Of a DNA stretch of 64,000 bases, positions 1,535 to 63,984 are shown piece after piece. Numbering within the stretch: the stretch's first letter is position 1; each line of letters opens with the position of its first letter. The stretch is from a virus (lineage: Duplodnaviria; Caudoviricetes). The notes under the pieces were generated by a model. The model did no database searches. It was not told the DNA's origin and worked only from the letters and a program-made list of their open reading frames with translations. The translations under genes were made by a program, and so were the position numbers. The stretch covers positions 8,894-72,893 of the IMG/VR virus record IMGVR_UViG_2513237213_000006; one strand, written 5' to 3'.

Positions 1535-2052
1535 ATCAGACCAACAACAGAAGAGTATTATATTTATCTAATACTAACGTATTATCTAAATATAAAGGTG
1601 AGTGGGTTCTTCAAAGGTGAATCCTTCCGATTTGGCAATCGGTTCAGGCAAAGCCTGAATGTCTTGCAAGCAAGCCAACCTTCGGTCTTTTAGTTTTCTC
1701 TTTTCTCTCCACATCGGAGGAATGGTCAGGCAAAAAGAGAGCAGCGCGAGGCTGGCGCCGGGCATGGATAAGCCTTTCCGATTTGGTGACCATCGCGAAT
1801 AAGTGGTATTGATGACCTGCCACGGTCTGAAATTGCCGTATAAGCGGCTGTTTCTCATATTGGTTTTGTGCAATCAAAAAAGTGACCGCGAGAAACGCCG
1901 TCTAAGGCCGTTGAAAAAGGAAACGCATATAAACTATCGCATCGGAGTGTAAAAGGCGGCTACGCCGCGAATAGAGCCGTTAGGCTTAATTTCTCCGATT
2001 TGCAATAAAAATTACCCGCAATGGTGGCTTAGATGGCCAACATGGGGGGAAT

Positions 2053-2672: not shown

Positions 2673-3218
2673 ATGGCAGGACAGTCCAAGATTGATAAAC
2701 TGGGGCTGGGAGCCAAGGTTCTCGCCCTTCGACAAGACCTCACCTGTGAAGAGATTGCCGACGAGATCAACAATCGGTATCTTCCTGCAGGTGCAGAGCC
2801 TGTCAACAAAATGACGATTTCGAGATACTGTACTTCCCACGGTATGACTGATATGAACCGAAACGACATTTCCAAGAGCGTCACCAACTTTGATGCGCTG
2901 GGCGAAGCCTGTAAGGTTAGGGACAGACTGGTCAAGCGCACCAACAAAATGGAGCGATTCCTCGATGAAATCAAAGAGGATGAGGAAAAGTTGTCGGAGT
3001 ATGCAAGTATCAATAACGCATACCTGAACTGCTTACGACAGTTGAATGACCTCAATGAGTCGGTATCGAAAATCCAAAAAGAACAGCTGGGAATGAGCAA
3101 AGTGCGTCAGGTTTTGGGAGTAGTCCTGACAACGCTGAACAAGTACCCATCTGTTCGAGCAGAGATTTTTGAGCAGCTTCGCAATTCGGAAGTATACGAA
3201 ACCATCAGAGCAATTTAG
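2673..3218 (+). CDS. Terminase small subunit-like (N-terminal HTH plus coiled coil)
   Basis: Directly upstream of terL; HTH-like start and helical body. Confidence 0.6.
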   Translation: MAGQSKIDKLGLGAKVLALRQDLTCEEIADEINNRYLPAGAEPVNKMTISRYCTSHGMTDMNRNDISKSVTNFDALGEACKVRDRLVKRTNKMERFLDEIKEDEEKLSEYASINNAYLNCLRQLNDLNESVSKIQKEQLGMSKVRQVLGVVLTTLNKYPSVRAEIFEQLRNSEVYETIRAI

Positions 3219-8719: not shown

Positions 8720-9291
8720 ACTGCTATCTGACGGAACAGGAGTTATTGCCGTATCAGAACATCATGGATGAACTCACGATGGAAGATGCGCAAATGGCTT
8801 CAAGTCTGATTGACGGTTATTTAGGACGGTCTTTCGCTTTATCGCAGTTCACAGACCGCATTAAATTGCGGAAGGGCAGAGGAAAACTCAGTCATTCGCC
8901 TGTGGCGAGTGTAGACAAGGTGGTGGGAGTTTCCCGCTCCATGTTTGGCAAGGTGAAGTCCGAAATGTCCCCTGAAGTGATTGATCTTGATCCCGAAATG
9001 GATGGTTATTTCACGCTCGAGAATGATTCAACAGACCTGACGGCAATGGTATTCAACACAGTTCCCGAAATGCTGCTTGTTACCTATACCAGCGGTTTTG
9101 CTGAGTATCCTCAACGACTGAAAGACGCTTGCGGGATGCTTGCTTGCAACATTCGTCAGGCAAAATCCTTCGCTGGGGCAAAGCAATTAACCTCTTTGGA
9201 CTTTCAGGTGCTTATGACGGATGATAGCTTCTTTACATCTGACATAAAACTGCTTTTGAAAGGGCTGAGTTACGATGTTCGCAATGTTTAA
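8716..9291 (+). CDS. Head-tail connector/adaptor
   Basis: 'YLTEQE...ASSLIDGYLGR...YTSGF...LKDAC' connector pattern; position. Confidence 0.7.
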   Translation: MNCYLTEQELLPYQNIMDELTMEDAQMASSLIDGYLGRSFALSQFTDRIKLRKGRGKLSHSPVASVDKVVGVSRSMFGKVKSEMSPEVIDLDPEMDGYFTLENDSTDLTAMVFNTVPEMLLVTYTSGFAEYPQRLKDACGMLACNIRQAKSFAGAKQLTSLDFQVLMTDDSFFTSDIKLLLKGLSYDVRNV

Positions 9292-59877: not shown

Positions 59878-59905
59878 AAAAACCACCCGAAGGTGGTCGT
59901 TTTTA
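59878..59905. terminator. Bidirectional terminator between convergent operons
   Basis: AAAACCACC-CGAA-GGTGGTCGTTTT. Confidence 0.75.
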
Positions 59906-60109
59906 ATGTGATAATGCACCTCTGTATCTATTCAATGCTTCTTCAGCGGTCATTTCGTCGAAAGCATGTCCCATCGTATCAAGCAGTTCCATAGCGTCCT
60001 TGTGAGGCGTGTTAGCGGCCTTCATGGACAAAACAAGATAAGCCAGCACAATGTCGTTGAAGCGTCCTGAGTCGAATAATCGGCAGTTTTCTTTTTCAAT
60101 CTGTTCCAT
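59903..60109 (-). CDS. Small acidic hypothetical protein
   Basis: AAAGGA SD; last gene of the minus operon. Confidence 0.65.
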   Translation of the reverse strand: MEQIEKENCRLFDSGRFNDIVLAYLVLSMKAANTPHKDAMELLDTMGHAFDEMTAEEALNRYRGALSH

Positions 60110-60592
60110 TCACTTTATCCTTTCTACTCTGTCAATCCAATCATAACTAAACCAAACGGTGCTCTCACAATCCCAACAGTGGAAGGGCATAAAACCATCC
60201 TTGGCCATCCATTTATACTGCACATCGAGGTGAAAGCCATCATAGCCCTGCAGGGCGTACCATCCGAAGTCGATATGCGGGAAAGGAAGAAAATCTGTTT
60301 CTTGAAGCTGAAGGTCGGCAATATCGGTCGGCTCAAAGACTTTCAGGTCTTTCTTGGGATGCAGGAGGAAGTGGTGTTCTCCGCAGTGATAAGGGGTTTC
60401 TCGACACCATTTTTCCCAAGCGGAAATATACGGCGAGTCGGTGTATCTCGTGGAAGTCCACAGGCCAATGTTAGGTTTATTCAGCAATGGCTGGCCAGTT
60501 ATCATGTTGCGGTCGAGGTCAAAGAAAACAAACTCCTCGCTGTCTGTGCAAAATATTTGGTCAGGAAGTTCGTTTAATACTTTCATAAGCAC
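60110..60592 (-). CDS. Hypothetical protein, possible ART-like fold
   Basis: 'KPNIGLWTS...W..WC', 'YDGFHL', 'WDCES'. Confidence 0.55.
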   Translation of the reverse strand: MLMKVLNELPDQIFCTDSEEFVFFDLDRNMITGQPLLNKPNIGLWTSTRYTDSPYISAWEKWCRETPYHCGEHHFLLHPKKDLKVFEPTDIADLQLQETDFLPFPHIDFGWYALQGYDGFHLDVQYKWMAKDGFMPFHCWDCESTVWFSYDWIDRVERIK

Positions 60593-60593
60593 C

Positions 60594-61388
60594 TCAGTGA
60601 ATCAAAGAATAGGCTTGGGGGCTGTGTTTCCGCAGGATCTCCAAAGGGATAGAGCACTGACCGCATTTGCAGTGTTTGACATTTTCTCCTAGCTTCTGCA
60701 GATCATTGTCAATGGTGCCAATCGGGGGACAGAGCCGGGACTCACCAAGGGCAATAGAGCCGTCTATATTGATGCGCGGAGTGCAGTATTTGCCGACAGG
60801 CATGGTGTTTACGATGTGCCTAAAACTTGTTTCGGGGATTTGGTTGGCTATGAGCCGGAGGTTTACGCACTTCGGGGCTTTTGTTTCCCAGCGAGCGTCT
60901 TTGAGGTTCAGGGCGCGACCTTGCGGGTAAAGATAAATCTCGCTGACCTCGTCAACTACAGAGCAGTTTTTTATTTTACTCAGCCAGTACAAGTCCTTTT
61001 CGATAAGGCGCTTTGGATAATACTCCTTGACCGCAGTAACCTGTGTGAGAAAATTTTTAGCGCGGTTCTTTACAAAATCTCTGTACCAGTTATACAGGTC
61101 TTTATCATGCGCAAGCTGATACCCATTGGTGGCGATAACAACGCCCACTCGAGGGAATCTCTTTTGATATTCCGCAATCGTTTCCAATACCTGTTTTATC
61201 TGCGGGTGCTCAAAAGGCTCTCCTCCGCTGAAAACAATACACTGCATGGTGGAATAGCCGATAAGATCATAAGCAAAATCCAAATTCCTTTTCAGCTGTT
61301 CCAGCGTGATGTGCTTTCCGTCTGTGGTACAATCGCTCAAGCAGTGGGGGCAACCCATCGAGCAGTAGTCCGTAAGAGCTATTAACAT
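60594..61388 (-). CDS. Radical SAM protein
   Basis: 'CSMGCPHC' CxxxCxxC, 'FSGGEP', 'IATNG'. Confidence 0.9.
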   Translation of the reverse strand: MLIALTDYCSMGCPHCLSDCTTDGKHITLEQLKRNLDFAYDLIGYSTMQCIVFSGGEPFEHPQIKQVLETIAEYQKRFPRVGVVIATNGYQLAHDKDLYNWYRDFVKNRAKNFLTQVTAVKEYYPKRLIEKDLYWLSKIKNCSVVDEVSEIYLYPQGRALNLKDARWETKAPKCVNLRLIANQIPETSFRHIVNTMPVGKYCTPRINIDGSIALGESRLCPPIGTIDNDLQKLGENVKHCKCGQCSIPLEILRKHSPQAYSLIH

Positions 61389-61460
61389 TTTATCACCTCA
61401 ATATTATCCTCTTTTCGTGCTATATTTGCGGCGTTGAGCGCGGTGTTTTTATTTGCCATA

Positions 61461-62204
61461 TCATACCTCCTGTATCTTGTCTGTTATCTTGAACACATCG
61501 ACCACCAGTTCCTTCTCGTTACGGTCATCTATATAGCATAGCACATATTTGCGGCTGACGGTAGCGGTCAACAGGACTCCTGGCTTGCCGTTTTCATACC
61601 TTGACTTGAACCACTCGGCCTTTTCTCTGTTGTCTGTCCAGCTGAGTCCATAACGCTCTCTCCCCGGCGATACGCCCCTGTATATGGTAATGGTGTCGGG
61701 CAGGTTGTTGTAGTATTCGAGATCCGCGGGTTCCATCAGGTGCTTCTTCGATGCGCTTCGGAAAAAATTGATTGCCTCTTTACGGCTTACGTTTATGTCT
61801 TGGTTCGGGTCTTCCTCGTCCAGCCAGCATTGCTTCAGATATTTTGCATAGTCCTTCTCGCTCATGTACTCACGGCAGAGCTTGAACCATGTCATTTTAT
61901 ACGGTCTGTTGATTAAGAGGTACAGATGGCCAACGTCGCTCCTGTCAATCAGCTCCATCATAAACTTGCGGTAAACCTTGTAGCCATCGGGGGTGGTTAA
62001 ATCCAACACTTCCCCGGTCTGTGGGTTCATGGAAATAGTGGAGGTGGTGAAGGGGTGAGAGCATATTCCCAGCCCCGGTAGGGCTTTGTTTTCTTCGATT
62101 GGCACTGCGTTAAACAGCAGTTTTGTTGTATGGCGTATTTCTTCAAGGTTGGTTTTCAAAATCTTATCCTCACTCTTCAAAATATTTACAGATACCTTTT
62201 TCAC
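61461..62204 (-). CDS. ADP-ribosyltransferase-like protein (R-S-E signature)
   Basis: 'TIYRG', 'GLSWT', 'RNEKELVV' in the canonical order. Confidence 0.6.
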   Translation of the reverse strand: MKKVSVNILKSEDKILKTNLEEIRHTTKLLFNAVPIEENKALPGLGICSHPFTTSTISMNPQTGEVLDLTTPDGYKVYRKFMMELIDRSDVGHLYLLINRPYKMTWFKLCREYMSEKDYAKYLKQCWLDEEDPNQDINVSRKEAINFFRSASKKHLMEPADLEYYNNLPDTITIYRGVSPGRERYGLSWTDNREKAEWFKSRYENGKPGVLLTATVSRKYVLCYIDDRNEKELVVDVFKITDKIQEV

Positions 62205-62352
62205 CTAATTCGATTGCAACATCCATGTCCTCGGTAGCCACATTGGGATTGTGACATTCCTCTACGTTTACAAGAGTACAACCTCCACCAAAAGAGGGGT
62301 CATAATCTCCTCCAAATGCTACGGCGTGTTTGCAGTTTTCACAAGTGTTCAT
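62170..62352 (-). CDS. Small Cys-rich protein
   Basis: AAGGAG SD; 'CENCKH...C...C...CKYF'. Confidence 0.65.
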   Translation of the reverse strand: MNTCENCKHAVAFGGDYDPSFGGGCTLVNVEECHNPNVATEDMDVAIELGEKGICKYFEE

Positions 62353-62367
62353 TTTTATATCTCCTTA

Positions 62368-62396
62368 TTTACAAATAATCTGAAAAGTATTATAAT
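62368..62396 (+). promoter_or_regulatory. Promoter P1 of the repeat-mimic cassette
   Basis: TTTACA-N17-TATAAT. Confidence 0.7.
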
Positions 62397-62411
62397 CTTA
62401 TATGTAGACAG

Positions 62412-62442
62412 GTATTCGCCCCGCATTGGCGGGGATGTATCA
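62412..62442 (+). CRISPR. Solitary type I-E-like repeat
   Basis: GTATTCG-CCCCGC-ATTG-GCGGGG-ATGTATCA; same stem and 8-nt handle layout as E. coli GAGTTCCCCGCGCCAGCGGGGATAAACCG. Confidence 0.6.
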
Positions 62443-62527
62443 GAAAATCAAATTTTATAATTTGAGAGCTGTGTAATATTTAAGGTCAGCCTGTCTGCGA
62501 TTGTAATTCCCTAAATATTCCTCGCTA

Positions 62528-62536
62528 TGGTATGAT
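62528..62536 (+). promoter_or_regulatory. Extended -10 promoter P2
   Basis: TG-G-TATGAT, 27 nt upstream of the first I-F repeat. Confidence 0.5.
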
Positions 62537-62562
62537 GGGGGTTACAAAGCAGGTCAGCCGCA

Positions 62563-62639
62563 GTTTACCGCTGAATAAGTGGCTTAGAAAGTATAAGCGG
62601 CCTAGAACGACCTGTATGTTTACCGCCGAATAGGCGGCT
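62563..62639 (+). CRISPR. Type I-F-like mini-array (28-nt repeat, 27-nt spacer, 22-nt repeat)
   Basis: GTTTACCGCTGAATAAGTGGCTTAGAAA and GTTTACCGCCGAATAGGCGGCT; 20/28 and 18/22 identical to GTTCACTGCCGTATAGGCAGCTAAGAAA, with compensatory stem changes. Confidence 0.85.
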
Positions 62640-62714
62640 GTCAGGCTTCGGCCTGTGGATTGAAACACTTTATTTTTCTATTAAGGAAAAGGAAAAAGTC
62701 CCCCGCAAGGGGGC
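62640..62714 (+). CRISPR. Type I-C-like repeat, 31-nt spacer and GTC-led hairpin
   Basis: GT-CAGGC-TTCG-GCCTG-TGGATTGAAAC carries the exact 11-nt I-C handle; spacer is followed by GTCCCCCGCAAGGGGGC. Confidence 0.75.
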
Positions 62715-62720
62715 TTTTTC
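62697..62720. terminator. Bidirectional terminator
   Basis: CCCCC-GCAA-GGGGG flanked by A- and T-runs. Confidence 0.8.
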
Positions 62721-62726
62721 GTGTTT

Positions 62727-63020
62727 TTATTCTTCCACTTCGCCCCATATGGCCTCATATTCTTCGACCGTCATAGCGTTTTCTGCCCAGCGTTTTGCTT
62801 CATCCTCCGTGATAGGCTCAATGGCTTCATCATAATACGGTGTATTGGCACCGCCGTTCCGATGCAGGAAGAACTCGCCTGTTTTCTTCAGATACAGAGT
62901 GCTTTCCTGATAGTTCATATCGTTGCAAGCGATAATGTCGCGCCCATTGATATTGTCTTTGTGTCCCAGTTCTTTTGCGGTTTCAGTGTCATATTTCTTG
63001 CCGCCGATGATTTTCTTCAT
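62727..63020 (-). CDS. Small acidic phage protein (MKKIIGGKKYDTETAKEL...)
   Basis: AAGGAG SD; acidic 97 aa. Confidence 0.8.
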   Translation of the reverse strand: MKKIIGGKKYDTETAKELGHKDNINGRDIIACNDMNYQESTLYLKKTGEFFLHRNGGANTPYYDEAIEPITEDEAKRWAENAMTVEEYEAIWGEVEE

Positions 63021-63022
63021 GG

Positions 63023-63358
63023 TCACTGCTCCTTTTTCTTTCGTTCCAAACACTTTCTGATCCTCAGCGCGTTGAGAGTGGGGGAGTCGCTTCTATACTC
63101 GCCCTTACTGTATGGAATATAGTTGTTTGCCAGTTTGGTTGATATTCCCAGTCGTTCTGCTGCCTGTTCTATACTCAATCCCTGTTGCATAAGTTTCGTC
63201 AGTTCGTCGGTTCGCTCATAACGAACTGCACCTTCGGTTATAAGGATTTTTCGCACTTTGCCAAAGCTGAGACCGCTTTTTCGGGCAACCTCTTTGATAG
63301 ACTCGCTGGCCTTGTACTCCCTAACTATCGCTTTTATATTCGCCATACCTGTACACAC
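63023..63358 (-). CDS. Tandem HTH protein
   Basis: 'SIKEVARKSGLSFGKVRKIL' and 'LSIEQAAERLGISTKLANNY'. Confidence 0.75.
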   Translation of the reverse strand: MCTGMANIKAIVREYKASESIKEVARKSGLSFGKVRKILITEGAVRYERTDELTKLMQQGLSIEQAAERLGISTKLANNYIPYSKGEYRSDSPTLNALRIRKCLERKKKEQ

Positions 63359-63426
63359 CTCCTTTTTGACAAAATCGGGTAAACAATTTTTGACATATTT
63401 TTTTCGATATGACGGGCCGAAAATGC

Positions 63427-63984
63427 TTAGTTTCGTTCTTTGAATATATCCCCAATATCAACACTCACATCTATGGATTCAACGAGTGTCAAGTGGGGGT
63501 GTTCGTCTTTTTCTTCGGCGGTCATTTGCATCCATTCTTCAGGAGGGATAAGCGTATAGATGTTATCCAGTCTATAATTGCTATAATGCAGTTTGTAGAC
63601 CTCAACCGCCTTATCTCTAGGGCTGACAATCCAATATTCAGGCACGCCGATTCTTGCATACAACTCTTTCTTTACAGTCATATCTTTTTTGCGAGTGCTG
63701 GGGGAGAGTATTTCTGCAACAAACACAGGAACGCTTGTTATGAGGCCGCTTTCGGTATGCTCTATAGGCTTTTGGTAAACGGCCAAATCGGGATAAACAA
63801 CATCGCCTTTACTGGGGATTAAGCCGACATCCTGAGTTAAAAAGAACTGCGTCGAGTCCAGTGAATTTTCTATGATGTTCGTTAAATTCTTGTCTGCCAT
63901 GAAGTGGAAAAGGCTAGTAGGGGACATTCTATACTTCACTCCTCCGATATATTCTGATGGGATTTTCTCTAATAACGCATCCAT
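63427..63984 (-). CDS. Uma2-family endonuclease-fold protein
   Basis: 'YPDLAV', 'PVFVAEILSPST...D...KKELYARIGVPEYWIVSP'. Confidence 0.9.
   Translation of the reverse strand: MDALLEKIPSEYIGGVKYRMSPTSLFHFMADKNLTNIIENSLDSTQFFLTQDVGLIPSKGDVVYPDLAVYQKPIEHTESGLITSVPVFVAEILSPSTRKKDMTVKKELYARIGVPEYWIVSPRDKAVEVYKLHYSNYRLDNIYTLIPPEEWMQMTAEEKDEHPHLTLVESIDVSVDIGDIFKERN

Follow-up and report, generated by a model that had tools for sequence, protein, structure and literature searches.

The composite cassette in the phage window

The window analyzed here, a stretch of 64,000 nucleotides, covers positions 8894 to 72893 of contig C5 (72,893 bp, 45.7% G+C). Because structural and replication genes are encoded on it (terminase, portal, tape-measure protein, DNA polymerase, primase-helicase, and exonuclease), C5 is taken as a phage replicon within the ten-contig genome G000. 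The host is a rumen Selenomonadaceae bacterium (family f1) of the Bacillota, and related DNA is present in contigs from bovine and sheep gut metagenomes; no close DNA relatives were found in INPHARED. C5 has no cas genes or CRISPR arrays of its own. The host type I-F locus sits on the chromosome C1, where cas1, cas2-3, an array of 36 repeats, and csy1-4 follow one another and form a complete system. The array holds 35 spacers of 32-33 nt, none of which matched the phage; spacer 5 matches another replicon of G000 (C2:226871-226893) at 22 of 23 nt. In G000, simple pattern searches for I-C, I-E, or II-C arrays were negative.

Within this replicon, the following features make up a short cassette:

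62368-62396, plus strand: promoter-like site P1 (TTTACA-17-TATAAT), 11 of 12 consensus matches, from a consensus scan only
62500-62536, plus strand: type II-C repeat-like element, 88-93% matches to arrays with a 66-nt period in five genomes of the family
62528-62536, plus strand: candidate promoter P2, an extended -10 element (TGgTATGAT) lying inside the II-C-like element, some 20 nt upstream of R1
62563-62590, plus strand: R1, I-F repeat-like unit, a 28-mer ending in the intact 8-nt handle CTTAGAAA; stem CCGCT/AGTGG, loop GAATA, and CT instead of CC at positions 9 and 10
62591-62617, plus strand: pseudo-spacer (guide), 27 nt
62618-62645, plus strand: R2, I-F repeat-like unit with the perfect stem CCGCC/GGCGG
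62583-62637, plus strand: predicted mature crRNA-like RNA, 55 nt (8-nt handle, 27-nt guide, 20-nt R2 hairpin)
62640-62666, plus strand: type I-C repeat mimic, a hairpin plus TGGATTGAAAC, overlapping the end of R2
62692-62720, no strand assigned: bidirectional intrinsic terminator that closes the cassette

The earlier note on this DNA had missed that the I-F unit is one module of a composite cassette. P1 could drive the cassette as a whole, and an I-E-like hairpin (CCCCGC, 4-nt loop, GCGGGG) follows it directly at 62405-62440. The II-C-like element may act as a decoy for tracrRNA/Cas9, as a promoter, or as both; in one of the family arrays with a 66-nt period, the repeat ends in TGGTATAAT. By analogy with what is known of II-C repeats, the embedded P2 could serve as a promoter. 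In the I-C unit (62640-62720), a single repeat mimic is joined by a pseudo-spacer some 25 nt long and by the terminator, and a true I-C array of the family was found in L098. The start of this pseudo-spacer (ACTTT, any base, four or five T, ...TTA) recurs in L044, L082, L097 (a prophage of G175), and G041 (L100), which suggests a conserved I-C target.

On the minus strand, the surroundings of the cassette (window 59903-63984) are made up of small genes of unknown function, and the neighbors include a 60-aa Cys-rich protein, a 97-aa protein, and double-HTH, Uma2-fold, phrog_4776, and radical SAM proteins. The 97-aa protein has more than 400 homologs in gut metagenomes. This gene region looks like an anti-defense island, although no match to a known Acr family was obtained among the cassette-neighbor genes and acrIF24 was not identified nearby. 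An Rfam scan returned two tRNAs and nothing else.

Repeat-like units and related cassettes

R1 and R2 are two 28-nt units placed 55 nt apart. Both form a hairpin whose 5-bp stem has the C6-G20 pair at its base and a loop of 5 nt at its top. R1 shows every feature of a type I-F repeat (28 nt, 5-bp stem, 5-nt loop, and 8-nt 3' handle), and R2 shows all but the handle: repeat-like sequence extends over the initial 22 nt, and the final 6 nt form a degenerate handle that runs into the next module. Over the first 22 nt the two units differ by three changes, all in the stem-loop; their tails are unrelated. Pair 10-16 is T-A in R1 and C-G in R2, and pair 8-18 is G-T in R1 and G-C in R2. The description of R1 as a full 28-mer with the CTTAGAAA handle and the compensatory stem differences reported in the earlier note were both borne out. 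The note had suggested selection on the hairpin; in all 22 related units compared (phage repeats, host repeats, and host CreR pseudo-repeats), the stem pairs are intact, and pairs 8-18, 9-17, and 10-16 vary through standard pairs only. Throughout the related units, the handle is always present on the upstream unit and never on the downstream one. A degenerate repeat pattern allowing up to three mismatches gave two matches in the window and none in 100 shuffles. The handle of R1 is identical to that of the host repeat, and the whole unit differs from the host repeat at 6 of 28 positions.

The boundaries of the predicted 55-nt product assume that Cas6f makes its canonical cut behind G20 in both units (PMC10651486). 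Folding of the whole 178-nt transcript gave z = -4.1, and the leader before R1 (62549-62561) was predicted to pair with the guide (62597-62615) through two helices of 7 and 5 bp. This leader-guide helix (GCAGGUC/GACCUGU) is not seen in the relatives. An alternative hairpin between the 5' arm of R1 and the AGCGG of the guide is possible in the window and is not kept in the related loci L062 or L066.

Scanning metagenomes with the phage-type repeat revealed homologous cassettes, and in L049, L071, and L074 a true I-F array whose repeat is identical to the first 22 nt of R2 and continues there with CTTAGAAA. The L044 cassette has at least three units with guides of 20 and 21 nt, followed by an I-C mimic and a terminator. 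A homolog of the 97-aa gene pointed to L082 and L083, where two units and a 19-nt guide occur together with an I-C mimic and a terminator. The guides of the sister cassettes measure 18-21 nt. In L062 and L066, the guide is 25 nt long, and here too a repeat-like 18-mer stands at its start. These two loci (L062, minus strand, about 3120-3200; L066, plus strand, about 790-870) represent a second cassette family, in which the 18-mer has a GCACA loop and a handle-like CTCTGAA and the cassette is flanked by I-C-like and I-E-like mimics. In IMG/VR, pattern scans for the R1-guide junction, the phage-type repeat, and a generic handle-loop-arm arrangement gave nothing or chance matches in coding sequence, and no I-F-like repeats accompanied the distant homologs of the flanking genes; a scan of the genome collection gave chance matches in coding sequence only.

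When four gut metagenome runs were compared with the region, R2, the I-C mimic, the terminator, and the 97-aa gene emerged as a conserved block, and the part of the cassette upstream of it proved to be mosaic. One contig has a solitary R2-type hairpin; in another, a solitary R1-type hairpin is fused to an I-E-like hairpin that replaces the I-F guide and R2; a third has a multi-unit array with an 18-nt guide. The solitary orthologous copies on two of these gut contigs retain the R1-type and R2-type stems within a shared sequence context. A solitary I-F hairpin is therefore all that some natural variants of the cassette have, so the guide is not essential to the cassette. These two variants, together with the single-repeat mimics of other subtypes in the cassette, would suit a pure decoy. 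Such an RNA, expressed at a high level, would compete as a non-targeting crRNA or in the manner of a Racr and tie up Cas6f, Cas7f, and Cas5f/8f, and its repeat-like guide would not address any site. I-F interference is lowered by non-targeting crRNAs as well as by RacrIF1 (PMC10651486). A decoy does not explain, however, why the 5' handle, which is absent from Racr, has been retained here, nor the features of the guide described below, and we regard it as unlikely.

Guide match to the host CRISPR repeat beside the predicted csy1-4 promoter

The 27-nt spacer had been described as short for an I-F crRNA, which agrees with the 32-33 nt of the 35 spacers in the host array. What had been overlooked is that the spacer is itself repeat-like. 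Guide nucleotides 1-18 (62591-62608) match positions 11-28 of the host repeat, and the remaining 9 nt (62609-62617) have no match. Within the matched stretch, the guide differs from the repeat at positions 6, 12, and 18 only, the positions that are flipped out by the Cas7 backbones in I-E and I-F complexes (also in PMC10120712). The window guide thus shows 15 of 15 pairing positions, 0 of 3 sixth positions, and then no match against the repeat, a 3x(5+1) pattern. Directly 5' of the matched stretch, positions 9-10 of the host repeat are CC, which is the I-F PAM.

In a mismatch scan of the host genome, the host repeats were the best matches of the spacer. With genome-wide scoring that required a CC PAM and ignored every sixth base, at least 15 contiguous pairs were found at all 36 host repeats; the next best sites reached 10 and 9. 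A match of 22 of 27 guide nucleotides at C1:1093224 was set aside, as it has no CC PAM and contains seed mismatches, and a repeat-like 18-mer at window 1832-1849 was at chance level. R1 has CT at the PAM position, and R1 and R2 both mismatch the guide at position 2, in the seed; the phage's own repeats would consequently escape.

The earlier note had proposed a search of the spacer against host and phage genomes. No full-length phage or plasmid protospacer was found. None appeared in IMG/VR even when the sixth positions were left free, and none in INPHARED and PLSDB, where the best E-value was 0.8, to unrelated coliphages. This result bears on inter-virus competition, the commonest role proposed for viral mini-arrays (PMC11656645), in which the guide would direct the host I-F system at a rival phage or plasmid. 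Besides the missing protospacer, the spacer is 5 nt below the host norm and the repeats are not identical to those of the host, which makes this role a very remote prospect.

The regions upstream of csy1 were compared in eight congeners. In six of them (G171, G191, G179, G175, G144, and G167; L089-L094), a CreR-like mini-array precedes csy1, in which a pseudo-spacer of about 19-23 nt separates an upstream unit bearing the CTTAGAAA handle from a handle-less downstream unit; within a few bases, it is followed by CC and an operator abutting the csy1 -35 box. In G000 and G131, the long array occupies the place of this mini-array, and the G000 locus has no CreR-like unit and no CC-flanked operator. 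The order in G000, for which the coordinates of repeat, PAM, -35, and -10 were verified, is the terminal repeat, 6 nt, TTTTAC (-35), 17 nt, and TATAAT (-10). This -10 aligns positionally with that of the congeners, and the csy1-4 promoter is predicted here, with the terminal repeat of the array 6 nt upstream of the predicted csy1 -35 box. Since the host lacks an operator and has a terminal repeat at this distance from the -35 box, the guide would address that repeat.

Guides from sister cassettes (L044, L082, and a metagenome contig) match the operators of G175, G191, G179, and G171 at 15, 15, 15, and 14 of 15 pairing positions, respectively, with 0, 0, 1, and 1 matches among the three sixth positions, and the matches stop after position 18. 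Over these four reference pairs, the contrast between pairing and sixth positions gave a Fisher p of 1e-9. One close relative, which shares the block of R2, I-C mimic, and 97-aa gene, has a different 18-nt guide that fits the G171 operator. The window guide is unlike the pseudo-spacers of the congeners, which begin with TCTAT or TTTAT. The start of the target lies 96-108 nt before the start of the Csy1 alignment in the congeners and 102 nt before it in G000, and in all five guide-target pairs the 3' end of the guide lies between -2 and +3 nt relative to the -35 edge. In G000, the PAM is 24 nt from the -35 box, so a 27-nt footprint reaches 3 nt into the box, and the length of the guide is accounted for by this distance, given that guide 3' ends sit at the -35 edge. 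The 15/15 versus 0/3 pattern, the CC PAM, and the positional equivalence with the congener operator are what the decoy leaves unexplained.

The 18-nt match could also derive from a repeat by deletion or recombination, which would weaken the statistics of the single pair, and phage repeats with the same AGCGG arm do exist (L082 Rb and X5). If the stretch is repeat-derived, the periodic signal comes down to just two derived changes, at positions 12 and 18, and p is then about 0.02. In its stronger form, this origin would make the element a decayed remnant, a longer Cracr array that lost a spacer and the first 10 nt of the middle repeat and whose RNA has no selected function. Sister cassettes of at least three units, some of them with repeats in which the AGCGG arm is followed by CTTAGAAA, and the strongly mosaic state of the region in metagenomes fit such a loss. 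However, the loop of the fragment in the guide is GTATA, as in the resident host, and the flanking R1 and R2 loops are GAATA; the other departures from the repeat fall at the silent positions 12 and 18 only; and the R1 handle and the R2 hairpin are intact. A remnant is accordingly improbable, and a recombination origin of the 18-mer is compatible with present function.

Considering these observations together, we interpret the mini-array, with a probability of about 0.7, as the type I-F module of a phage RNA anti-CRISPR cassette, a Cracr-like repressor of csy1-4, and this interpretation is drawn from the sequence. The guide most likely turns the host CRISPR complex into a repressor of itself. 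Transcription of the cassette would start at P1, at the promoter inside the II-C-like element, or at both, and host Cas6f would cut after the R1 and R2 hairpins to leave a 55-nt RNA with a host-type 5' handle. This RNA would load a Csy complex with about five Cas7f subunits, and the complex, bound to the terminal repeat, would cover the upstream edge of the csy1-4 promoter. The expected outcome is binding without Cas2-3 recruitment or cleavage, repression of csy1-4, and competition with host crRNAs. The processing, five-Cas7f, binding, repression, and competition steps are modeled on published work on I-F crRNA-like RNAs. For the Csy complex about one Cas7f short that the earlier note had envisaged, the stoichiometry is an analogy with the 54-nt CreA2, which assembles with five Csy3 by cryo-EM (bioRxiv 10.1101/2024.10.29.618823). 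Its non-interfering or regulatory interpretation had depended on hosts carrying I-F repeats of this type, and the host has a full I-F system; at the level of sequence, the regulatory reading is supported by the CC-flanked 18-nt PAM-proximal match at the host csy1 promoter with no PAM-distal match, and by the sister-cassette guides that match the csy1 operators of congeners in the same pattern.

The crRNA would pair with the template strand of the array. In other Cascade systems, template-strand pairing is the weaker roadblock orientation. As their sequence is identical, the other 35 repeats would be addressed too. It is possible, though doubtful, that a single guide places Csy on every repeat of the array and on the effector promoter, cutting both crRNA supply and effector synthesis whatever the spacers are, with loop variation among the repeats of congeners (GTATA, GAATA, and GCATA) then being in part an escape from guides of this kind. 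The same 36 PAM-flanked sites with intact seeds could make the guide a self-targeting weapon: Cas2-3 would cut the host array, or priming would begin there, and the CRISPR locus or the chromosome would be lost. Yet the genome that harbors the phage replicon retains an intact array and intact cas genes, nine PAM-distal nucleotides stay unpaired, and such partial matches repress and do not cleave in the I-F crlRNAs studied (bioRxiv 10.1101/2024.10.29.618823), and a weapon of this kind is highly improbable.

Relation to known crRNA-like regulators

The window element is best read as belonging to the Cracr kind, described in 2023-2026, in both architecture and predicted action. Like the viral I-F Cracrs (CracrIF1 and CracrIF2; Liu et al., bioRxiv 10.1101/2024.10.29.618823), it is borne on a mobile element and combines a Cas6f hairpin, a 5' handle, and a shortened pseudo-spacer whose PAM-proximal part is complementary to a promoter site of the host I-F locus, and a smaller, non-cleaving Csy complex is predicted for it. 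It is phage-encoded outside a CRISPR-cas locus, with hairpins and an upstream handle, and has a PAM-flanked match at the predicted csy1 promoter. It departs from these Cracrs in that its target lies inside a CRISPR repeat present in 36 copies, not in a unique cas or creT promoter operator; in that the guide is no copy of, and has no similarity to, a host CreR/CreA pseudo-spacer; and in that the guide is 27 nt and not 17-21 nt long, a length above that of viral I-F Cracrs which the earlier note had not recognized. Moreover, its host is a member of the Selenomonadaceae (Bacillota) and not a beta- or gammaproteobacterium, and the cassette mimics I-E, II-C, and I-C repeats as well, whereas the arrays of Liu et al. 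aim at a single subtype. New here are the target type (a CRISPR repeat as operator), the guide length, and the multi-subtype cassette.

The viral crRNA-like regulators described so far copy guides that hosts use for regulation and are directed at unique cas or toxin promoters. Here the host has replaced regulator and operator by a full array, and the phage guide would address the CRISPR repeat. If this is true, CRISPR repeats have a built-in weakness in the form of an internal PAM followed by invariant sequence, the loss of the host autoregulatory site gives no protection from such anti-CRISPRs, and the element represents a natural one-guide, many-sites design for array silencing. The match pattern of the five guide-target pairs documents, cleanly and in natural sequences, the 5+1 rule by which Cas7 backbones pair. 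In a published survey, viral mini-array spacers were not enriched for matches to CRISPR repeats (PMC10120712).

RacrIF1 and other solitary-repeat Racrs (Camara-Wilpert et al., PMC10651486) are likewise phage RNAs that mimic I-F repeats and compete for Cas proteins, with Cas6f binding to a hairpin with the C6-G20 base. A Racr consists of one repeat, and its active product has no 5' handle, so that Cas5f and Cas8f are excluded; the window element, in contrast, has two units, an intact handle, and a guide with a target, and falls outside the Racr definition. Nor does it show the host-identical repeats and full spacer with a protospacer that characterize inter-virus mini-arrays.

Host I-F regulatory mini-arrays and their phage copies have been described (PMC10120712). 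With the host CreR/CreA elements (Shmakov et al., PMC10120712; CreA2 in Liu et al.), the window element shares a handle-bearing upstream unit, a pseudo-spacer in the 19-27-nt range, a handle-less downstream unit, a CC-flanked target just upstream of the csy1 -35 box, and tolerated sixth-position mismatches, and its RNA of 55 nt compares with 54 nt for CreA2. It differs in being phage-encoded and outside the cas locus, and its resident host has neither CreR nor such an operator. The prophage regulatory mini-arrays of Acinetobacter, Moraxella, and P. aeruginosa (PMC10120712) resemble the present case in that the I-F locus has a long array in place of a mini-array of its own; their guides, unlike the one in the window, copy host regulatory spacers and target the cas8f promoter operator.
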